From an uncultured virus (IMG/VR IMGVR_UViG_3300021079_000006) (taxonomy: Duplodnaviria; Heunggongvirae; Uroviricota; Caudoviricetes): a stretch of DNA of 20,000 nt. This document shows, in pieces, positions 3,861 to 18,475 of this stretch (the first letter of the stretch is position 1; every line of letters begins with the position of its first letter). The stretch lies in the IMG/VR virus record IMGVR_UViG_3300021079_000006, positions 46,055-66,054 of that record, one strand, 5' to 3'. Position numbers and translations under genes: made by a program. The notes under the pieces are model-generated. The model was not told the origin of the DNA. It saw only the letters and a list, made by a program, of their open reading frames with translations, and ran no database searches.

Positions 3861-4197
3861 AACATTGCTTGGATTTTTCTGCATCCTCCCATTTACCCAA
3901 CGCCCGCAGGAAAGCCTCTGCACGTTGGCGGGCGGTGGCATTCCAGACGTACCGCGATGCTGGATGATTTTCTAAACGCTCGCGCAGGTGTTTTCTGATG
4001 AAAACACATTGTTCATCCGTCAGCACCTTCTCCGCCTCATGCATGGCGTTGAGGTCGTTACAGTAGTCCTCAATTCCAGTCCGGCCCCCGTCGTGCGTTT
4101 TCGAATTAACCCCCATCAACCCAAACTCTGGGTGCTCAATGATGTCAGTCCACCCGCACGCCTCGGCTATCGCCGTGTTGATCTGTTGGTCGTTCAT
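3853..4197 (-). CDS. Phage ABA-sandwich-domain-like protein
   Basis: INTAIAEACGW...DYCNDLNAMHEAEKVL...ATARQRAEAFLRA pattern; AAGGAGG upstream; ATGA overlap at 4194-4197. Confidence 0.6.
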   Translation of the reverse strand: MNDQQINTAIAEACGWTDIIEHPEFGLMGVNSKTHDGGRTGIEDYCNDLNAMHEAEKVLTDEQCVFIRKHLRERLENHPASRYVWNATARQRAEAFLRALGKWEDAEKSKQCYE

Positions 4198-7217: not shown

Positions 7218-7553
7218 TTACAGGCTTTTGATTTTGAACACTCTCGCCAACACTTCCCTGCTGGTCTGCGGGATGGATAGCGTCGTGGGGCCTTCGTCCG
7301 GGGTGTTGTAGCTGACGACCTCTACGCCGTTCTGAAGCAGCACAGCAATAGCCTGACGCTCAAAGTCGCAGATGTTTGTGTCGTATGGGATTGTCAGGCT
7401 GCGCCCCCGGGCTCGGTAACTAAGTTTGACCCGGTCGCCACGCTTGGCTGTGGATGGCAGGTAACGCACTTCGATTTCGTCGTGCTTAGGTGTTTTGGAA
7501 GCGACCTGTATTGTGAGTTCGCCTGTTGTTTTGGTGTTTATGGCTTCTAGCAT
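7218..7553 (-). CDS. Hypothetical early protein
   Basis: IEVRYLPSTAKRGDRVKL motif recurrent in small phage early genes; A-rich leader. Confidence 0.6.
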   Translation of the reverse strand: MLEAINTKTTGELTIQVASKTPKHDEIEVRYLPSTAKRGDRVKLSYRARGRSLTIPYDTNICDFERQAIAVLLQNGVEVVSYNTPDEGPTTLSIPQTSREVLARVFKIKSL

Positions 7554-7573
7554 ATATATGTGTTTGGTTTAAT

Positions 7574-7638
7574 GGGGCTTGATTGCCCCCTGCTACCTAC
7601 GGTTTGTGCCCGGGGACAGAAACCGTAGGCAGACGGGG
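7574..7638 (-). other. Structured intergenic element (two hairpins)
   Basis: 13-bp stem CTGCCTACGGTTT/AAACCGTAGGTAG (one G-U pair on the minus strand) at 7593-7632, plus GGGGC-AATCAA-GCCCC at 7574-7589. Confidence 0.55.
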
Positions 7639-7647
7639 ACACTCACG

Positions 7648-7893
7648 CTAGTTTAGCGACATGATGACGGTTGGCGCACAGCCCTCTGGAACGTCTTCCA
7701 GAACTTCACGAACGGCCCGGAGGTGAGCTTTGATGGCACTTTCCTTGTTCCCGGTGTAGACGGCCTCGCCAATCTGGTCGCAATTGGAATTTTTGATCTG
7801 CGTGAGGTAACTGCGCTCTTGTCGAAGATACCAAGTTTCGACGAACCGGGCGTCGTGGGCAGGCGTGGCCTTGATGTAGTCGTGGAGGTGCAT
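7648..7893 (-). CDS. Hypothetical early protein (81 aa)
   Basis: FVETWYLRQERSYLTQIKNSNCDQIGEAVYTGNK; lies downstream of a predicted promoter. Confidence 0.6.
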   Translation of the reverse strand: MHLHDYIKATPAHDARFVETWYLRQERSYLTQIKNSNCDQIGEAVYTGNKESAIKAHLRAVREVLEDVPEGCAPTVIMSLN

Positions 7894-7980
7894 TAGGCGA
7901 GGGAAGCTGTGATGTCTTTGGTTGGGATGTCCCAGAGCGCACTGGCGTCGATGTATGGTTGAAATTGACTGACAGGTGAA

Positions 7981-8009
7981 GCGATACCCGAATCAAATTT
8001 CCCGGGCAA
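7981..8009 (-). promoter_or_regulatory. Putative early promoter
   Basis: TTGCCC-N17-TATCGC with AT-rich upstream region; flanks shared with two other sites. Confidence 0.4.
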
Positions 8010-8035
8010 GCAATTTTGTAAAAACAATTCAAACA

Positions 8036-8072
8036 AAGCCGCAAGCTGCTGTTTTGTAGCAACTTGCGGCTT
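8036..8072. terminator. Bidirectional intrinsic terminator-like hairpin
   Basis: AAGCCGCAAG...CTTGCGGCTT inverted repeat with T-rich flanks on both strands, directly after the stop at 8083. Confidence 0.7.
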
Positions 8073-8082
8073 GTTGTTTTTT

Positions 8083-8349
8083 TTAAAATAAAACTGTTTT
8101 TGTGGCTATAGCGACCCGTTCGTACACATCGTCGTCCGAGTACGCCTGAAATACTATCCCGCCTCCGTACTGCTTGTTGTGGAAGCGTTTACCTCCAAGT
8201 TTGCGGGCTTTCTTTAGCGCAAACTCGTACAAGTCTACAAGAGTAAGCGCGGAGCGTTCTTCGGGCGTAATGAATGCGAGGAAATGGATGACCCGGCGCG
8301 GGTTGCCATTAATGTCGTTCTTGATGCGAGTGATGCTGTAGTCGTTCAT
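8083..8349 (-). CDS. Conserved phage early hypothetical protein
   Basis: Likely start MNDYSITRIKNDINGNPRRVIHFL...GGKRFHNKQYGGGIVFQ, 7 nt after the upstream stop. Confidence 0.7.
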   Translation of the reverse strand: MNDYSITRIKNDINGNPRRVIHFLAFITPEERSALTLVDLYEFALKKARKLGGKRFHNKQYGGGIVFQAYSDDDVYERVAIATKTVLF

Positions 8350-8356
8350 AAAATAA

Positions 8357-8875
8357 TTAAGCCAAAAGTTCTGATGCGTAGCCTCCAAAGTATTTTCCTC
8401 GGGCGTTGCCAAGCAGGTCGGCAAAGTTATCAAACTCAAATTGGGAGGGATTATCCCGAATGTATTTGATGCGTTCTGATGCCGAATAGCAGTCCGCCCA
8501 AACCCTGTGCGCCTCTTCATACTCGCGCCGGGACAAGTCCTCGTCATCAAGCACGGGGTAGTCCTCGAGGGACAGGTGGATATCAAGAGCGATCTCGTAA
8601 TCGGTCGTCCCTTCCCGGACTGCGAGGTACTCGATCCAGCCACAGGCCCAGTGCCCGATGCGGACAACCTCTACGTTCTCGCCCTCACCTCCGAGTTGCT
8701 CGAGGGCTACCTCGAAGTTGGAGTTTGCGAGCAGGTCAGAGTCACGGTTGCGGGCGACCACAACGCCCCATCCATCGTCCGGGAGTTGCCCGGCATAGTT
8801 GGACAGCGAATCGAGGCCAGTAGGGCTAGAAACAGCCTTTCTGAGCGAAGGCAGGGAGAATTCAGTTTTGTTCAT
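8357..8875 (-). CDS. Conserved acidic phage early protein
   Basis: RDSDLLANSNF...GHWACGWIE...DYPVLDDEDLS motifs recurrent in phage hypotheticals; first gene after a promoter. Confidence 0.7.
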   Translation of the reverse strand: MNKTEFSLPSLRKAVSSPTGLDSLSNYAGQLPDDGWGVVVARNRDSDLLANSNFEVALEQLGGEGENVEVVRIGHWACGWIEYLAVREGTTDYEIALDIHLSLEDYPVLDDEDLSRREYEEAHRVWADCYSASERIKYIRDNPSQFEFDNFADLLGNARGKYFGGYASELLA

Positions 8876-8920
8876 AAATGTACAGTGTTTGAGTTAGATG
8901 GTTGCTTGCTGACTGAGGAC

Positions 8921-8949
8921 ATCCAACCATACCACTCGTTGTCTGGCAA
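8921..8949 (-). promoter_or_regulatory. Putative early promoter
   Basis: TTGCCA-N17-TTGGAT (alternative extended -10 TGGTATGGT) with an A-tract upstream. Confidence 0.4.
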
Positions 8950-9011
8950 CTTAATTTGCATTCTTTTTTTAAGCTGCCCGCAAGTGACGCAAGCCCAGCG
9001 TTTTACGGAAC

Positions 9012-9051
9012 AAAAAAAAGCACCAACGAACTTAACCGTTGGCGTTTTTTT
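9012..9051. terminator. Intrinsic terminator ending the replication operon
   Basis: Minus strand A7-CGCCAACG-GTTAAGTT-CGTTGGTG-C-T8. Confidence 0.8.
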
Positions 9052-9522: not shown

Positions 9523-10188
9523 TTAAACTGTTCTGTATGAGGGCCAATCGCACACTGCAACGCCCCCGGTTTCAAGTATGCGGCTAGATATGCTTTCGCC
9601 AACGGATTGAAGAAATGTTTCCTTGGTCTGATTTGAGATAAGGAGCGTATCTCTTTCGGACTGATAGCGTCTATCGATTAGGTGGGTAAGTAGGCGATCC
9701 TCCCAAGCTGTTTCTCCTCGTTCCTGCATTTCGTCGAGCACCAAGTAGGCGGGGGCGCAGTAACGCTCGATCACATCTTTCTCAGATCCGCCCTTGTCCC
9801 TAAAGGACTCTTTGATGTCTATAAAGAACCCCATCGCCGTTGCGTACAATGGGCGTTTCCCGGCGTTTGCAATCATCTTGGCTATCTGCACCGCCATTTG
9901 AGTCTTCCCGGTGCCCCTGCGCCCTACCAGCGCAATAATGAATCCAGTGCCAAGTCGCTTCTCCACCCGAGCCTGAACTTTCAGCCAATGCCCCCCTTGC
10001 AGGTCAACGGAAGTAACATTGCGGTGCCGTGGCGGGATGTTCGCTTTCGCGAGGTACTCGATGCCCTTTTCACGGAGCATCCGAGTCTCCTGCTCTTTCT
10101 CGCGTTGCTGGATCTCGTCCTTAGACAAGGTCAGGAACCTCGATTGTTTCAACAAACTCTCTGCTACGTTTTTCGCTTCGGTGATCAT
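9523..10188 (-). CDS. DnaC/IstB-like AAA+ helicase loader
   Basis: Walker A GRRGTGKT, Walker B LVLDEMQ, LIDRRY, LISN; follows the initiator gene. Confidence 0.85.
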   Translation of the reverse strand: MITEAKNVAESLLKQSRFLTLSKDEIQQREKEQETRMLREKGIEYLAKANIPPRHRNVTSVDLQGGHWLKVQARVEKRLGTGFIIALVGRRGTGKTQMAVQIAKMIANAGKRPLYATAMGFFIDIKESFRDKGGSEKDVIERYCAPAYLVLDEMQERGETAWEDRLLTHLIDRRYQSERDTLLISNQTKETFLQSVGESISSRILETGGVAVCDWPSYRTV

Positions 10189-10915
10189 GGTTGATTTTTG
10201 ACTTTTCCTGCTGTTCGTAAAACTGACTGTACCCGGCTGCCATTGCCGCCCTGAGCGCTGGAATGGCTTTCTCTAGCCCTAGATCCTCGGCTCTCAGCAA
10301 AGCATTGCGAAGTGCCGTTGGGGTCATGGGCTTTTTGATCTCGACTCTGTGCTGCTGAAATTCCGCAAAAACAGATTTAAATTCAACAGTATCGAACCCC
10401 GCAGGGTAATCAATTTCCCCCGCAGGGGGATTAAGGGGGGTGCTCTTTAATTTGGTTCTTGGTTTATGGTTCTTGGTTCTTGGTTCTTGGTTCTTGGTTG
10501 GTATACCAGTGTCCGTATACGGCGACTGGTATACCGTGGGTATGTTTTCTGATACCGTCGGTATGTTTTCCGATACCGCCGGTATACCGTCGGTATTTTT
10601 AGACCACCGCTTGGAAACTCTGGCCCTCTGTTGTTCTGAGAGTGATTGATACTTTTCCAGCTCTTTGTCGGCTCGCTTATGCGACCAAACGCCGTTGCAG
10701 TGAGAAAAGAACTCCCGCAAAACTCGTTCCACGGCTTCGCGTTCGTCCTGTGCCCGGGCGGACAGCTTTCGGATCAGGTCGTCAACAGTGAGTTGAAGCG
10801 GTCCGTTGTTAAGGTAGTAGAGATCGAGCAGGCGGCTGTAAACGCCGTGCTCAAGTAGGGACAGGTGACCTGTGTCACGCAGGTAGTCCCCAATGTGTCG
10901 AGGGTAATGGTTCAT
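10121..10915 (-). CDS. DUF1376 (YdaU-like) replication initiator
   Basis: MNHYPRHIGDYLRDTGHLSLLEHGVYSRLLDLYY N-terminus (likely start 10915), low-complexity repeat linker and C-terminal helical domain. Confidence 0.85.
   Translation of the reverse strand: MNHYPRHIGDYLRDTGHLSLLEHGVYSRLLDLYYLNNGPLQLTVDDLIRKLSARAQDEREAVERVLREFFSHCNGVWSHKRADKELEKYQSLSEQQRARVSKRWSKNTDGIPAVSENIPTVSENIPTVYQSPYTDTGIPTKNQEPRTKNHKPRTKLKSTPLNPPAGEIDYPAGFDTVEFKSVFAEFQQHRVEIKKPMTPTALRNALLRAEDLGLEKAIPALRAAMAAGYSQFYEQQEKSKINHDHRSEKRSREFVETIEVPDLV
10451..10596. repeat. Putative replication origin: iterons and heptamer array inside the initiator gene
   Basis: Seven copies of (C/T)(T/A)TGGTT at 10451-10499; 36-bp imperfect palindrome at 10500-10535; ATACCGYSGGTAT at 10531, 10552, 10573 (21-bp period) and 10584. 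Confidence 0.7.
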
Positions 10916-11330
10916 CGATTGAATAAATTGATAGATTGATGGATGGGGACTCCCCCTTGGCAGCGTAGACCTTTTCAACGGTCGCCCGGACGATCTGCCC
11001 GTCGTCCTCCCAAAAGCCCTCCAAGGCATCTTGCGTGCCTTTGCAGAGGTTGTCCCAGTCGGGGCGAGCGTCCATCCACATGCGCCCCTCTGGGTCTTTT
11101 TTCCGCTGTAGCCGCTGCGGGCGGGCCATCACAAATAACACTTCAATTCCCATCGGCCCGGTGATGGCGGCTACGGGCCGATGTTGGTTTGCAAACAGGC
11201 GTATCGCGTCCAGATACCTCGTCGTGCGCTTGTCCTTGAAGAAGACTGGCTTGCCTCCTTTAATAAACATTCGCTTGCCCCCGGTCTGAACTGGGATGGC
11301 CTCAACGGGTATCTGGAACGTGACCCTCAT
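10875..11330 (-). CDS. rusA: RusA-family Holliday junction resolvase
   Basis: RPDWDNLCKGTQDAL...WEDDGQIV catalytic motif. Confidence 0.9.
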   Translation of the reverse strand: MRVTFQIPVEAIPVQTGGKRMFIKGGKPVFFKDKRTTRYLDAIRLFANQHRPVAAITGPMGIEVLFVMARPQRLQRKKDPEGRMWMDARPDWDNLCKGTQDALEGFWEDDGQIVRATVEKVYAAKGESPSINLSIYSIDEPLPSTHWGLPA

Positions 11331-11332
11331 GC

Positions 11333-11932
11333 CTAGAACGGGATGTCGTCGTCGGTCAGATCAATCGGGTCCGATGCGTACACCGTGCGCTGCGGAGTTG
11401 CCGGGCGGGACGCTGGAGCGGCTGCTGGAGCTGCCCCGGTCTCGGCCTGAATGGACTTCGCCACGGCTTGCAGCTTCCGGGACAACGCCGACATTTTGGT
11501 GCGGTCGAGCGGTGTTCCCGCCGGGCGGGCGTCGGGATCGTTGAGCCACGTCGCTTCATACATAGGCTCGCCCTTTTTTGTGTACGCTAGCTCCCGGCCT
11601 CCATTCTGGCCAGCCTTGGTCCGCTGCTCGATTGTCACGAGCACTGCCCGGCCTTCGAGGAACCCGTCGCCTTGAGCCAGTAGGTCAAACCAGTTTGCCG
11701 GGGCCTTGAGAGCCTCAAGAAGCATGCGAGACGTGCGTGCTATTGATTTATCGGACGAGATATACCCCTCCCAGATGATAGTGCATCCGCCCTGCGCGGG
11801 ATCTTCTGGATCGATGACAAGAGGTATGCGGACAAACTCCGCTCCGTTGTCGGTTTCTGACAACCAACCCCCGGTCGTGGGGCGCTGGACATATGCCCGG
11901 AAACGTCCGGGTTGCGTGATGTATTTGCTCAT
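11333..11932 (-). CDS. Single-stranded DNA-binding protein (DUF669-like)
   Basis: Beta-rich N-domain, Ala/Pro linker and acidic tail DDDIPF; follows the Sak4-like gene. Confidence 0.7.
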   Translation of the reverse strand: MSKYITQPGRFRAYVQRPTTGGWLSETDNGAEFVRIPLVIDPEDPAQGGCTIIWEGYISSDKSIARTSRMLLEALKAPANWFDLLAQGDGFLEGRAVLVTIEQRTKAGQNGGRELAYTKKGEPMYEATWLNDPDARPAGTPLDRTKMSALSRKLQAVAKSIQAETGAAPAAAPASRPATPQRTVYASDPIDLTDDDIPF

Positions 11933-11934
11933 GG

Positions 11935-12813
11935 TTATTGTAGTGACTGAAGTTTAACTATCCCTGCCTTAATGCGGTCAGCTGGAAGGGTTTCAATTGG
12001 GGTTTTGGTATACGCAACCTTCTGCTCTTTTGTGAGCGTTGAGGTGGTGAGTAGTGCAGTGAATTCCTGACGCAACTTTGCTGGAGAATTGGCGTCAACT
12101 GCGGCTGCAAACTCTTCGTAAGACAGGTTCAACGTCTCTGGCAGTGAGAGGCGATTCTTGGCATCCCAGCCCGGGCTCCAACAAGTCTGAATGATGCGGC
12201 CTCCACCGATAGTCTTGTCTGGCTTGCCCCCAGCGGACTTAGTTTTGAACACCTCGTACACGGCGAACAGGCAAGCGTCTGGCCATTCCCGGAGAATCCC
12301 GGTGAATCCCTTGTGCCCCTTCATCTCGTAACGGTCCCACTGCTCGCCCCCGGGCTGAGTAAAGGTCTTAATCTGGACGTGGCTGAGAAGAATGATGCCA
12401 AACTTCTGGCGTTCTCGGAGCGTGTCGAGTTTGTTGAGCAGTGCAGACAGCTCGAACTCGGCAACCTTGTAGCCTTTGCCAAAGCCGTAGCTTTCAATGT
12501 TAGTCTGGCCATCTCTTTTACAGACGTACCCGTGGATAGACCGCTCCAAGGAGTCTGTGGTGTCAACTACGAGGGTTTTGAAATCCCCGGGATTGGTGGT
12601 CAACTCATCGACTGTGGCCAGCGTGTCACCAAACGAGTCAGGGGTGATGCGGGCGACATGATCGAGCCCAGTGAGCCCTTGCTCTTGGCTGATAAACAAC
12701 GGCGATGGCGCTGCTGCTCCAAATGTTGACTTACCGATGCCTTCTGGACCGGAAAGAAGGATGCGTGGGGGGAGGGATTCTCCGCCTCGTTTAATTTTTG
12801 CTAGTATGCTCAT
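11935..12813 (-). CDS. Sak4-like (AAA_24) single-strand annealing ATPase
   Basis: GPEGIGKST, TLVVDTTDSLE, YGFGKGY, AKNR motifs; context of exonuclease-Sak4-SSB. Confidence 0.85.
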   Translation of the reverse strand: MSILAKIKRGGESLPPRILLSGPEGIGKSTFGAAAPSPLFISQEQGLTGLDHVARITPDSFGDTLATVDELTTNPGDFKTLVVDTTDSLERSIHGYVCKRDGQTNIESYGFGKGYKVAEFELSALLNKLDTLRERQKFGIILLSHVQIKTFTQPGGEQWDRYEMKGHKGFTGILREWPDACLFAVYEVFKTKSAGGKPDKTIGGGRIIQTCWSPGWDAKNRLSLPETLNLSYEEFAAAVDANSPAKLRQEFTALLTTSTLTKEQKVAYTKTPIETLPADRIKAGIVKLQSLQ

Positions 12814-12823
12814 ATGTATCGAT

Positions 12824-13879
12824 TTACTGGTTAACTACGAAGTGCCGCAGAAACTCTTCTGCCGCGTTGTGGAAGCCTGTGCCAAGAGCAAGGGCTTCGT
12901 CAATCTCTCCCAGCCTTTTTGTTGGCTGTTCGTAACGGAGAAAGTGATACCTGCTGCACTTGCGAAGTGCCGTCAGGCGCGAGTTGGTCAGGAGCTGTTT
13001 TTCTCCTTCCTTGAGGGTCAGCTCTGCGTGTTTTGTCGCAGGTCCGAATCGGATGTTGTCCACGGTCGCCCGGCCTGCGCACAGGTCGTAGAACTCGCAG
13101 GTTCCGTACTGCGTGCACGCTCCCGGGTTTCGTGGCCATAGGTTGCGATTGCGGAAATACAGAAGTTGCTGGGACATGGCCCACGCATCCCCCATGTACT
13201 CAAGCAGGTCGTTGTCGGTGCGTCCGACTTCCTTTACAGCAAAGTAAGAATCCCGCTTTTCATTGATCTCACCAAGCGTCCGGGCGGATAACTCCTCGAG
13301 GGTCTCTGGCCGGGTTTGTAAGACGTACCCGGCGTCAGTGTCCGCCGTCTGTCTCCACTTTTTTCCGTCCTTTGTGCGTACCCGCTCCCCGGCTGCGTCG
13401 AGGACGATCTTGACGCCCTCCTCGTCCAGCAACGGAATGTTGCCAAGCTTATACCCGGGCTTGCGGACAACGTCGTACACGACCGTGTTGGCGTCGATGC
13501 CCCGGGAGCGCAGGCTTAGGATGTACTTGCTGATCTGGGTGTCCATTGTGAGACGCCCCCAATACATCGAGTCGGCGTCGATTGAGTCGCTGGTCGTTTT
13601 GTGCTCGAGGACCTTGAGCACCCCGGTCTGCTTGTGACGCAGGACCCCGTCGATCTTCCCGGCTTCGAGGAAAGACCGAGAGGGAGCCTCGGTCTCCGGG
13701 TTTAGCAGTGGGAACGTGAATTCCGACTCCACTTCAAGAACGTCGTGCGCCTCGAGCACCGGGATGAATGACTCCACCCAGCCCATGAATAGGCCCCGGG
13801 CTTTGGCCAGCGCCACGTCGGTTGCCGGGACCCGGGAAAGACCGCCAGTGACTGCGGTACGATAGATTGATGTGTCCAT
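12824..13879 (-). CDS. Cas4/AddB-like PD-(D/E)XK exonuclease, apparently circularly permuted
   Basis: EVESEF, GKIDGV and LEHKTT catalytic motifs; Cys triad C255/C261/C267; the family's usual N-terminal motif (TNSRL...CSRYHFLRY...ALALGTGFH) sits at the C-terminus. Confidence 0.85.
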   Translation of the reverse strand: MDTSIYRTAVTGGLSRVPATDVALAKARGLFMGWVESFIPVLEAHDVLEVESEFTFPLLNPETEAPSRSFLEAGKIDGVLRHKQTGVLKVLEHKTTSDSIDADSMYWGRLTMDTQISKYILSLRSRGIDANTVVYDVVRKPGYKLGNIPLLDEEGVKIVLDAAGERVRTKDGKKWRQTADTDAGYVLQTRPETLEELSARTLGEINEKRDSYFAVKEVGRTDNDLLEYMGDAWAMSQQLLYFRNRNLWPRNPGACTQYGTCEFYDLCAGRATVDNIRFGPATKHAELTLKEGEKQLLTNSRLTALRKCSRYHFLRYEQPTKRLGEIDEALALGTGFHNAAEEFLRHFVVNQ

Positions 13880-13880
13880 G

Positions 13881-14498
13881 TTAGATTTCGGTTTCTGCTT
13901 CTTCTGTTTCGATTAATTCGTCGTCTCCGTCAACCCGGCGATTGGCAACAAGCTCTGGGTAGCCGCAAGTGATTAGGTTTCTACGGAGCGTTGTGCTGCT
14001 CAACAACTGGTTGTTTTTAAAACCAACGACCCACTGGTCAAACTTGGAAAACTGGCCCTTCTCCCCGGCAATAGTGTCGCCCACGATGTCCCACCAGATA
14101 ACGCAAGCTGTGTGCGCTCGTTCTGGCTCTGGAAGAAAGCCGACTTGCCATACCCATTCCTGCACCTTTCTGCCTTTTTTTAGGACACTGAACTCTTGAG
14201 TGGCATAATAAAGCGCCTCCTCTTCCAATGTGTAAGGTCTCCACGAGTTTTCATAAATTGAGTCACAGACTCGATAAAGCGCTAAAAACTGACTTGGACT
14301 TAATTTAAGTTCCGCTACTTCGGCATCCCGATTTTTAGGCTCCATGCGATTGATAAGCACAACCCTTCTTAACATTGAGGTGGCGCTGAAGTTCCCGGCA
14401 ACCGCTTTGAGCATTGAGACCTGTTTTGCATCGGACCCGGTGACGGCCTGTAGCAGACCTCGGGCAATTTTGCTGTCCCACTTTTTGAGTGTTTTCAT
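13881..14498 (-). CDS. Hypothetical protein (205 aa)
   Basis: TAATG coupling with the upstream gene; acidic tail. Confidence 0.65.
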   Translation of the reverse strand: MKTLKKWDSKIARGLLQAVTGSDAKQVSMLKAVAGNFSATSMLRRVVLINRMEPKNRDAEVAELKLSPSQFLALYRVCDSIYENSWRPYTLEEEALYYATQEFSVLKKGRKVQEWVWQVGFLPEPERAHTACVIWWDIVGDTIAGEKGQFSKFDQWVVGFKNNQLLSSTTLRRNLITCGYPELVANRRVDGDDELIETEEAETEI

Positions 14499-14713
14499 TA
14501 TTCAAGACGTGAAAGGGTTTCGATTGCTGTGAAGAAGGTGATGGCGAGAAGCGCCAGAATGGCGAGGAACTCGTATGGGGTTTGCGCCAGCCTGTAGAGC
14601 CAGTACACGTCTGCTGCGCCAAGGACGAGCAGCGCCACAACAAAGGGCAGTGGGCGCTCTGGAGCCCGGTCTGCGGGGCTGCTGGGGAGGAGAATGCGAG
14701 GTGGTTTAGACAT
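14498..14713 (-). CDS. Small membrane protein, two predicted TM helices
   Basis: Hydrophobic segments LPFVVALLVLGAADVYWLY and FLAILALLAITFFTAI. Confidence 0.65.
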   Translation of the reverse strand: MSKPPRILLPSSPADRAPERPLPFVVALLVLGAADVYWLYRLAQTPYEFLAILALLAITFFTAIETLSRLE

Positions 14714-14746
14714 ATGATCGATTAATTTTAATTATTACACTCTGAC

Positions 14747-14797
14747 GGCCTCGTCAGCGCCCGCATTACGGGTCGGACCCCCGGAGGGGTTTCGGCC
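14747..14797 (-). ncRNA. Type II hammerhead ribozyme
   Basis: Minus strand GGCC GAAA CCCC TCCG GGGG TC^ CG A CCCG TAATG CGGG CG CTGACGA GGCC: complete CUGANGA/GAAA/GUC core with stems I, II and III all pairing. Confidence 0.9.
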
Positions 14798-14970
14798 TAG
14801 GCTTTACGCACACTGTAGTCAATACCTTCTAGCCCCCCGTTTTCACTAAGGTGCTGGCGGGCCAACTTCCTTGCGTCCTCGGAAGTTACGGCCTCAACTG
14901 TGAAACTGCCATTACAAGAGGAAGGATAGTAGCGGCAAGAATAAGAGCAGATGAAGGATGCGGCGTTCAT
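14797..14970 (-). CDS. Small early protein (57 aa)
   Basis: Manual translation MNAASFICSYSCRYYPSSCNGSFTVEAVTSEDARKLARQHLSENGGLEGIDYSVRKA*; A-rich leader downstream of a promoter. Confidence 0.6.
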   Translation of the reverse strand: MNAASFICSYSCRYYPSSCNGSFTVEAVTSEDARKLARQHLSENGGLEGIDYSVRKA

Positions 14971-15012
14971 TGGATTAGTTTATTTTTAAGGTTCACTGCG
15001 ACCGACGAAATG

Positions 15013-15041
15013 AACTTATTCCACATCCATTTTACTGGCGA
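15013..15041 (-). promoter_or_regulatory. Putative early promoter of the recombination/replication operon
   Basis: TCGCCA-N17-TAAGTT with AT-rich upstream element. Confidence 0.45.
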
Positions 15042-16503: not shown

Positions 16504-17214
16504 TTAGAACGTCCTAGTCTCCCACAACTTCCGAGCGCCCGCAACATCAATGCTTGACTTCCCGATGCGGTCATTCACTGCGTTATGCAGACAAACTCCC
16601 CACGCAAAGAATTCACCAAAGTCAGCAGGGTTAAGTGCCATCCATTCTTTAAGGTGTGCCTCGCACGGGCAACCGTCAAACGGGAGAGAAGCCACCCAAG
16701 CCTCAAGCCAGTATCGCATGTCACCAAACGGGATGCATGTGGCATCAGCCCGGAGGCTATAGAGGTGCAGCTCCGCCCAGTACCGGGCTCCCTGCATAAG
16801 AATGCGGCTCTTTTGAAGTTCGCTACGCTGCTCAATCCGTTCAACCTCATTGCCGACATCAAACACCCATTTGTCGTGCGTTTCCCAGTCCGTGGACGTG
16901 GCTATTGCGGCTTCCCGCTCCAATGCCATTGCTACGACGTGCTGACGGTGATACGGGGCAGCAGGGTCGTCCCCGGGCTCCTCGAGCTTGGGGTTGTCGG
17001 TGTCAAACTTGGTCACCTGCTCATCGGTAATGCCGTCGCGTTTGCACAAAAACGCTTCGACCATCTCGTGGATTGCCACGAGCAGGACCGAAACGTCCCG
17101 GCCACCGTACTCTGGGACCTTGAGCATTAGTGCTCCATCGGCCAACCATTCCCAGTCGCCAGCCGTTGGGTAACGCATTGCGCTGGGGTCTACAGTCTTA
17201 ATTTCAATCCTCAT
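16504..17214 (-). CDS. HExxE metallohydrolase-like domain fused to an Erv1/Alr-like sulfhydryl oxidase
   Basis: N-domain RYPTAGDW...IHEMVE...PYHRQH...E; C-domain GARYWAELH, LPFDGCPCEAH, FFAWGVCLHNAVNDRIGK. Confidence 0.75.
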   Translation of the reverse strand: MRIEIKTVDPSAMRYPTAGDWEWLADGALMLKVPEYGGRDVSVLLVAIHEMVEAFLCKRDGITDEQVTKFDTDNPKLEEPGDDPAAPYHRQHVVAMALEREAAIATSTDWETHDKWVFDVGNEVERIEQRSELQKSRILMQGARYWAELHLYSLRADATCIPFGDMRYWLEAWVASLPFDGCPCEAHLKEWMALNPADFGEFFAWGVCLHNAVNDRIGKSSIDVAGARKLWETRTF

Positions 17215-18475
17215 CGAATGTTGATAGCCCGATTTCTTTCATCTTATCAATTTGCTCACGCACCTGCTCAATCGCCCCGGTCTTTCCCTCGAGGTAGTAC
17301 CCCTCGACAAGCTCGGCGTTCTCGAGCGCATGATCAAAAGCTTCTTCTAGCGTGTTTCCAAGTCCAACAACTGCGCCAATTTCCGGGAGTCCGCAGGATT
17401 GTGGAATAACAAAGTACCCACGGTCATCTTTGTAAATATTCCGCAATTTAACGTAATCTCGGATCTCTTCAGGAAACCGCAGCGGTTGCCAATTCTTGTC
17501 TGCAAAGCTGCTATGAAGCATGATCTCCGCCCCGTACTTAGCAACGGGCTCCGGGTTGATCACAACTCCGTTTGCCCCGGCCCAGATACACTCGGCCAAA
17601 TTTTTGTACTGTTCTTGGTAAAGCTCATTCGGAGGACTAGGAGCCCGAGCGCAGAAATCGATCATGTACGGCTTGTGGTCAGCCCCAATGCGGATCTCGG
17701 ACGAGAAAAAACCACGATAGCCGTAAGCCTGAAACACCGGGACCATGCGGTCGTTGAATCGGCGAAGAGGTTCCGGGATGTCAGCGTAATTCTTGAATAC
17801 TGATGCAAATCCGCAGTCTTTAACTTCAATGCCGCTAATCAGCGTCTTGGGAAATTGGCCGTCAATTGTCCAAGCATCGGTTCCAAATTCAATCTTATCG
17901 TCGAGAGCCTCTTCGACCGTGAATTCGATGATGTCTTTGAACCTACCAAGACCCCACTCAACCTCGTCGAGTTTAGGCTCCACAAGGTCGTAGGAGAGGC
18001 TGTGGAACGTTTCAAACGTCCCACGGTACTTGTCAGTCTTGACGTAGACATTGGGGTGGTCTTTAAGGAACTCTCGAAGATCCGCCATGCCCTTGACGTG
18101 AGTGTATTGACCCACAGGCATGTCTATCGCCTTGAGGATCTCTTTCATGCCCTCCCGGTTTAACTCGAGGCATTCCCCGGTCCGAGACCCCCAGACAACC
18201 TTGCCCATTTTGAGCAAGTGTTCCTGTTCCCATCCAAAATAGATGTCCGGGAAGCAGAACAGGTCAATCTCGTCAAAGTGTGGGCCGTAGATTGAATCTA
18301 CAAGCTCCAGCTCTTCAATGCCTGTGCCGATTTTGGCGAGGTTTAGCCTCGGAAAAGCAGACTCCCACGGGACGTAGTAGTACACTTTCTTGTACGTCTT
18401 CGCGAGCTTGATTGCCAACTCGCAGAACAACCCGTTATCAACAACGAGGCAAACTACGTCTTTAGGGTCTTTCAT
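17204..18475 (-). CDS. PurD(GARS)-like ATP-grasp ligase, divergent
   Basis: Pre-grasp Rossmann start, LELNREGMKEIL, VYVKT, VEEAL, GYRGFFSSEI, IDFCAR, and GARS-C-like VVGLGNTLEEAFDHA. Confidence 0.75.
   Translation of the reverse strand: MKDPKDVVCLVVDNGLFCELAIKLAKTYKKVYYYVPWESAFPRLNLAKIGTGIEELELVDSIYGPHFDEIDLFCFPDIYFGWEQEHLLKMGKVVWGSRTGECLELNREGMKEILKAIDMPVGQYTHVKGMADLREFLKDHPNVYVKTDKYRGTFETFHSLSYDLVEPKLDEVEWGLGRFKDIIEFTVEEALDDKIEFGTDAWTIDGQFPKTLISGIEVKDCGFASVFKNYADIPEPLRRFNDRMVPVFQAYGYRGFFSSEIRIGADHKPYMIDFCARAPSPPNELYQEQYKNLAECIWAGANGVVINPEPVAKYGAEIMLHSSFADKNWQPLRFPEEIRDYVKLRNIYKDDRGYFVIPQSCGLPEIGAVVGLGNTLEEAFDHALENAELVEGYYLEGKTGAIEQVREQIDKMKEIGLSTFDED

Follow-up and report, generated by a model that had tools for sequence, protein, structure and literature searches.

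A type II hammerhead ribozyme at the end of a phage early gene, with a conserved tail predicted to mask its catalytic core

The roles of bacterial self-cleaving ribozymes are described as largely elusive, and the reason for their presence between small phage genes as largely unresolved, glmS being the sole bacterial case taken to be well understood (PMC6765202). Type II hammerheads have been seen in clusters between phage genes, where they were proposed to cut long transcripts into gene-length mRNAs. Clustered prophage copies of this kind cleave transcripts in vitro and in E. coli, and hammerheads without known contacts are mentioned in the same article, with reference to its Figure S5 (Perreault et al., 2011; PMC3088659). 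Those of Desulfovibrio vulgaris cleave both in vivo and in vitro (cyPhyRNA-seq; PMC8782182). Viroid hammerheads cleave while the RNA is being transcribed, and some of the molecules stay uncut owing to alternative folds (PMC3376415). Fast hammerheads have a U-A trans-Hoogsteen (reverse-Hoogsteen) tertiary contact (PMC9217987; PMC6155905).

The stretch of DNA analysed here, called the window in what follows, is the final 20 kb of a virus record of 66,054 nt. Its minus strand carries at 14797-14747 a type II hammerhead in which inspection of the sequence finds all core bases and stems (Table 1). The core reads CUGANGA, GAAA follows stem II, and a NUH triplet stands at the three-way junction. Stems I, II and III are all present, the G10.1-C11.1 and A15.1-U16.1 pairs included, and the topology is that of type II, with stem II open and stems I and III closed. 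A first-pass annotation, made from the sequence alone, had announced an intact type II core at this place. Every part that it named lies where it put it on the minus strand, and the coordinates of its predicted cleavage, 14776/14775, 62 nt upstream of the ATG at 14713, agree with ours. Folded in isolation, the 51-nt piece adopts the hammerhead fold at -22.7 kcal/mol, its folding z-score being just -0.79. A custom structure descriptor gave one type II match in the 66,054-nt genome and none in 150 dinucleotide shuffles of the window. It additionally gave one type I/III-like spacing in the record. The Rfam model Hammerhead_II (RF02276), suggested with the annotation as a check, matches from end to end with 25.2 bits (E 0.28): the full extent is there, but the score stays under the gathering score of 37. 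Scores of 40.0 and 36.1 are reached by copies that follow relatives of the same upstream gene. By Rfam, the other 46.4 kb of the record show no further ribozyme at E up to 1. Judged by its sequence, then, the type II hammerhead is real. It is a single copy in a 66-kb record, which is not the clustered-prophage arrangement, where several copies flank single small genes.

Table 1. Positions of the ribozyme, its flanks and the neighbouring genes in the window.
Feature	Positions	Strand	Evidence or remark
Promoter-like site (putative)	15013-15041	minus	-35-like 15041-15036, 17-nt spacer, -10-like 15018-15013
Conserved 17-nt leader motif before first gene	14992-15008	minus	
57-codon ORF, first-gene slot	14797-14970	minus	TAG 14799-14797 overlaps ribozyme
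A just 5' of stem II, in stop codon	14798	minus	predicted reverse-Hoogsteen partner of U14768
Stem II, 5' strand GGCC	14797-14794	minus	sequence, folding, descriptor
GAAA	14793-14790	minus	sequence, Rfam, folding
Stem III, UCCG-closed loop	A14790-U14777 plus four C-G pairs	minus	sequence, Rfam, folding
GUC triplet	14778-14776	minus	predicted cut 3' of C14776
Stem I, 6 bp, bulged A14773	14775-14758	minus	sequence, folding
Loop I UAAUG, 5 nt, starting at U14768	14768-14764	minus	
Catalytic core CUGACGA	14757-14751	minus	sequence, Rfam
Stem II, 3' strand GGCC	14750-14747	minus	loop of the masking hairpin when masked
Core-masking tail	14742-14747	minus	complementary to 14757-14752; folding, conservation, covariation
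A/U-rich spacer ahead of next ATG	14714-14741	minus	no Shine-Dalgarno sequence
71-codon ORF, hydrophobic stretches	14498-14713	minus	first fixed gene of operon
Downstream operon	9523-14498	minus	205-codon ORF, PD-(D/E)XK exonuclease, Sak4, SSB-like, RusA, DUF1376 initiator, DnaC-like loader

Loci for comparison came from four pattern scans and one protein scan, at least 463 in all, in which our own scanner recognized at least 404 distinct type II hammerheads, 321 with a short and 83 with a long loop I. The GUC triplet, the core and the greater part of stem II were prescribed by the patterns, two of the scans dividing the sample according to core base 7; loop I, the tail and the base that precedes stem II on its 5' side were left free in all of them. 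With these elements imposed and the viral matches being those listed, the set is incomplete and biased. We kept 317 short-loop copies (stem II of at least 4 bp) and 70 long-loop copies (3 bp) followed by a tail of at least 30 nt, dropping 17 of the 404. Thinning at 90% identity left 295 and 69 respectively among the matches listed. The 69 long-loop copies form the pseudoknot class: a complement of at least 4 nt between loop I and tail is present in 55 of them, against 20 of the 295 short-loop copies listed. In the window a pseudoknot of loop I with either flank was ruled out, the longest complement being 2 nt, and the copy falls outside the pseudoknot subclass of the Perreault consensus.

The short-loop copies share something else. 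An A precedes stem II in 292 of the 295 listed, and of the 245 listed with a 17-nt stem-loop, 242 have U as the first base of loop I. The window has both, the U seven bases past the cut (bulge aside) and the A immediately 5' of stem II. By these bases, its ribozyme falls in a short-loop subclass of phage hammerheads in which the U and the A of the reverse-Hoogsteen contact are retained, and we infer that U14768 and A14798 make this tertiary contact. The presence of both suggests a ribozyme maintained for rapid cleavage. In stem I, six of six pairs covary, each with several pair types among 216 relatives listed, and pairs 1, 2 and 6 are kept in 216 of 216 while the sequence is free to vary, which is partly the result of selection, as the scanner required four pairs.

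The 3' flank adds a second possible fold. The tail can pair with the core (CUGACG, 14757-14752) in a 6-bp hairpin that is incompatible with stem II and with the catalytic fold. It takes seven extra 3' bases for the minimum-energy fold to become this core/tail hairpin, in place of stem II, at -26.3 kcal/mol. The masked ensemble is lower than the active one by 2.8 kcal/mol locally and by about 5 with longer flanks. Stem II has a probability of 0.004 with the native tail, against a median of 0.99 with 300 shuffled tails, five of which were as low as the native one. In the 73 masked copies listed the masked fold is favoured by a median of 2.0 kcal/mol (above zero in 70), a narrow range that is partly built in, because the sequence selection fixed both stem II and the mask. 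Nearest-neighbour energies omit the contacts of the core and the tertiary contacts, so that the predicted active fraction goes from 1% to 97% when a bonus of 0-5 kcal/mol is granted to them. Further folds compete once coding flanks are included. In naked RNA the ribozyme pairs with the last part of the upstream ORF, and when the product is lengthened to 14690, its most stable structure joins the core to the beginning of the next gene.

The mask is not peculiar to the window. Its adjacent form is present in 73 of the 295 short-loop copies and in none of the 69 pseudoknot copies listed. A core-masking helix of at least 6 bp in any register is found in 98 of the 295 short-loop copies listed, where shuffled tails give a mean of 8.9 and a maximum of 19. 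After removal of the adjacent form there are still 25 in 222 listed copies for 7.7 expected. The pseudoknot class has 5 in 69 listed, for 2.5 with shuffled tails. Most short-loop copies are unmasked, 197 of the 295 listed being devoid of a strong mask. Core base 7, the single variable position of the core, and its partner in the tail vary together: C/G 48, U/A 23, U/G 2 and C/A 0 among the listed copies (p 5e-17, relatedness ignored), then 29, 18, 2 and 0 among 253 listed copies after thinning at 80%. Both compensated states occur inside two to three sequence clusters, the number depending on the threshold. None of the 26 listed copies with A or G as base 7 is masked. Among the viral matches listed, the nearest stem I relatives keep the mask, unasked for by the pattern, in 17 of 17 cases: 15 exactly, one with a G-U pair and one in another register, one record identical to the window being included. 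The masked copies listed also keep the bases of the tertiary contact, A in 73 of 73 and U in 59 of 59. Conservation and covariation together argue that the masking hairpin is under selection. An operator in DNA was considered for the mask and rejected. Tails that miss it by a single change keep a G-U pair in 8 of 11 listed cases, which points to RNA rather than to a DNA operator, and the variable register counters this idea as well. The first-pass annotation had assumed plain cleavage; a selected hairpin that competes with the catalytic fold speaks against this assumption.

What might such a hairpin do? The reading that we prefer, and to which we would give about an even chance, is that the hammerhead cuts the early message only partly or late, the hairpin setting the cut fraction. 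The early transcript would start at the promoter-like site. During transcription the catalytic fold would be complete five bases before the masking tail emerges. The tail would then pair with the core, open stem II and park the RNA in an uncut state. The contacts of U14768 and A14798 would roughly offset the 2-3 kcal/mol advantage of the masked fold, leaving both states populated, and the hairpin would thereby determine the share of messages that are cut. Two RNAs would result from cutting. One would carry the first gene alone and finish at stem III with a cyclic phosphate; the other, the downstream mRNA, would have a 5'-OH in stem I, the masking hairpin coming next, and according to the first-pass annotation this 5'-OH end could alter its stability. 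What the analysis establishes is sequence, folds, conservation, covariation and context; that the region is transcribed, that it is cleaved, that this cleavage is partial and that expression is affected are predictions. With reference to the function of ribozymes lying between small phage genes, a covarying hairpin that hides the core provides a precise handle, which may separate tuned or switched cutting from constitutive cutting. If it is tuned, about 60 bases would be a natural setting of the ratio of processed to unprocessed mRNA.

It is somewhat unlikely, in our view, that the ribozyme is a constitutive processor. Nearly every transcript would then be cut, and the role of the mask would come later: it would leave the downstream mRNA with two adjacent hairpins at its 5' end and no unpaired 5' base, and would prevent the cut from being reversed. 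The predicted 3' product does fold as stem I plus the masking hairpin, and the bases of the contact for fast cleavage are wholly kept in the masked copies listed. A spacer shorter than 14 nt is also rarer in masked (4 of 67) than in unmasked copies listed (42 of 194; p 0.003), but such spacing of the start codon would suit an uncut masked message equally well. Against this reading, the 5' end of the product is enclosed in stem I already, and competition by the tail in the precursor is unavoidable. As to irreversibility, we infer that re-ligation is unlikely anyway, since four base pairs alone join the two products. Nor are masks enriched in arrays, a neighbour ribozyme within 1 kb being found for 12 of 58 masked and 25 of 114 unmasked copies listed (p 1.0). 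The same counts led us to reject a mask that would guard arrays against circularisation or scrambled ligation.

On its upstream side the ribozyme overlaps the 57-codon ORF: the last base of the TAG is also the first of stem II, and the A of this stop codon is the A of the predicted contact. This ORF has no match in PHROG or Pfam. It has four protein relatives; relatives at 73-75% identity lie in other phage families, with a hammerhead behind them too. Such overlap between stop codon and ribozyme is the rule among phage copies: in 194 of the 282 short-loop copies listed with enough upstream DNA, an ORF of at least 40 codons has its stop no more than 4 nt from stem II, and the frame of the stop is the longest open frame in 182 of 234 listed. 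The term 'stop codon' does not occur in the main text of PMC3088659. On the other side, an ATG opening 40 codons is found within 120 nt downstream in 249 of 267 listed copies, at a median of 32 nt past the core. No GGAG or GAGG was seen by eye within 16 nt of 24 starts. The ORF had been called the first early gene, which is plausible given the promoter-like site, conserved by eye in L467, L468 and L469, if too weak for a consensus scan, where it is unlisted. Of 25 matches to the pattern of the leader motif that follows this site, 4 lie in the same position, all in members of this phage family. We gave it up as a probe for the family, the other 21 matches being unrelated DNA. The motif is complementary to the hammerhead core, in L472 without a mismatch over 8 nt (by eye); as a functional element the pairing was rejected, because the leader is also present in relatives that have no ribozyme.

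Flush stops would suit a switch gated by translation, a reading that we find decidedly unlikely. The ribosome terminating on the first gene would block stem II and the mask would trap the uncut state, cutting being reserved for cases when translation of this gene lags or fails. The hammerhead would be conditional without any ligand, the ribosome at the stop codon and the masking hairpin deciding whether the early message is cut. If this were true, the phage would read the translation state of its host via RNA self-cleavage. Besides the general frequency of flush stops in their longest open frame, masked copies have them more often than unmasked ones (60 of 72 versus 134 of 210 listed, p 0.002), but this excess may reflect lineage. 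The unmasked pseudoknot class is equally flush (49 of 64 listed), so that tight packing explains these stops. The A of the stop codon, furthermore, is also the A of the tertiary contact, and translation at this place could aid the ribozyme instead of hindering it, by removing the upstream misfold.

Behind the ribozyme, profile matches agree with the gene names given by the first-pass annotation: exonuclease, Sak4, SSB (at E 0.0025 only), RusA and initiator (DUF1376). The ribozyme had also been placed at the head of this recombination and replication operon. It is indeed upstream of those genes, but the 71- and 205-codon ORFs intervene before the exonuclease. A search with the exonuclease gave seven loci: one identical, one (L471) without upstream DNA and hence unscanned, one distant, and four with shared gene order. 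These four (L468, L469, L470 and L472) all have the 71-codon ORF, for which PHROG and Pfam gave no family match, and each has a different first gene. In this slot L468 has two hammerheads, L472 has one, and L469 and L470 have none. In the whole records of L469 and L470 (one of them complete, 60.6 kb), a pattern match was found only inside a gene, and it was unstructured. Missing in two of four non-identical close relatives with the same gene order, the ribozyme loses its standing as a feature of the recombination and replication operon. The 17 nearest of the near-identical ribozymes listed are bordered by 13 upstream and 11 downstream gene families. The absence in two relatives and the 11 downstream families tie it to a swappable first-gene slot. 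The ribozyme would thus mark the end of an exchangeable first gene and be optional for the operon behind.

How genes are exchanged there is suggested by the window itself. Its upstream ORF shares 73% identity with its counterpart in L127/L128 and 38% with the one in L468, whereas from stem III to the core the identity is 100% to L468 and 80% to L127/L128. An upstream ORF like that of L127/L128 combined with a ribozyme like that of L468 points to a crossover within the 11 conserved bases that surround the beginning of stem II. The conserved ribozyme would, by this comparison, double as a DNA junction for swaps of the first gene. That the element would serve mainly at the DNA level, as a gene-swapping repeat or a palindromic protein-binding site, with RNA cleavage incidental or silenced, is very improbable: the mosaic junction, the many gene families around near-identical ribozymes and the Sak4 encoded by the phage favour it, but stem I varies in sequence with its pairs kept (in part by selection, as noted), the unpaired tertiary bases are invariant, and G-U pairs, loops of 4 or 5 nt and shifted registers all occur in the mask of listed copies, all of which argues for selection on RNA structure.

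Several observations accompany this survey. In L468, a hammerhead at 2404-2470 has one extra base between core and stem II, keeps a masking tail and is absent from the Rfam matches. Where small genes are not separated by a hammerhead, a hairpin whose loop resembles a tRNA T-loop follows the stop codon in L470 (about 4160-4185) and L472 (about 890-925 and 1080-1115); the same pattern did not find it in the genome of the window. A run of small genes at 7218-9050 (minus strand) is headed by a terminator-like hairpin and a second promoter-like site, with no hammerhead, and two of its genes look, by eye, like members of the hammerhead-bounded cassettes of L503 and L472. The window also encodes, at 16504-17214, a protein of 236 residues with a C-terminal Erv1/Alr thiol oxidase domain (Pfam). 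It is preceded at 17204-18475 by an ORF of 423 residues, with no Pfam or PHROG match, which may be ATP-grasp-like. Sak4 is at most 38% identical to its counterparts in isolated phages (best 12 of 261 entries). It reaches 37-42% in 14 of 301 genomes from the phylum of a Spartobacteria assembly, and this does not discriminate a host. Finally, G003, the 94-kb record of L126/L467, identical to the window, has a second exonuclease-Sak4 block at 24302-25351, with 65% identity, and this record may join two related phages.

Among isolated phages, no masked copy was found in the 5 examined of 15 weak matches, all of the pseudoknot class. The Streptomyces phages Paedore, Diane, Pablito and Spernnie and the Rhodobacter phage RcRudolph (L518, L520, L521, L522 and L519) carry arrays of this class between small genes, with 5, 7, 5, 3 and 2 hammerheads respectively, by pattern, in 2.4-5 kb. 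In these arrays 18 of 20 Rfam hammerhead matches are above the cut-off. None of the hammerheads is annotated among the record features shown, and we found no description of them in the literature. Such phages are culturable models for the function of hammerhead arrays.

With respect to described systems, the ribozyme of the window is closest to the type II hammerheads of Perreault et al. (RF02276), with its open stem II, its full core and its intergenic place between changing small phage genes. It differs from their pseudoknot type in lacking the pairing of loop I with the 3' tail (at most two complementary bases). It has instead a 4-bp stem II, a 6-bp stem I and a 5-nt loop with the contact U and A, and its tail pairs with the catalytic core (PMC3088659). 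We found no description in the literature of a core-masking tail in phage hammerheads; figures and gapped alignments, such as Figure S5 of PMC3088659, could hide one. In the hammerheads of Avsunviroidae, as here, core bases take part in a competing fold; there a fraction is left uncut, which is a prediction for the window, and the competitor is the overall structure that a replicating circular RNA adopts, as opposed to a local 6-bp hairpin, five bases past the ribozyme, in a phage mRNA (PMC3376415). The Desulfovibrio vulgaris copies are likewise of type II and lie beside phage-like or hypothetical genes (PMC8782182). The glmS ribozyme too, as predicted here, cleaves itself in a bacterial-type mRNA ahead of a gene. 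It is folded differently, depends on a metabolite as cofactor and brings about decay, whereas no ligand site is evident in the window copy. The early RNase III sites of phage T7 and the regulatory cassettes of T4 are also structured spacers that process an early polycistron and bound exchangeable small genes. These elements need a host enzyme or are promoter cassettes, while a hammerhead is self-cutting. As a kind, this ribozyme is ordinary, and the window copy is dispensable in close relatives. The activity of clustered type II hammerheads between phage genes and the idea of mRNA processing are known as well; what appears to be new, relative to the literature found, is a selected tail that masks the core.
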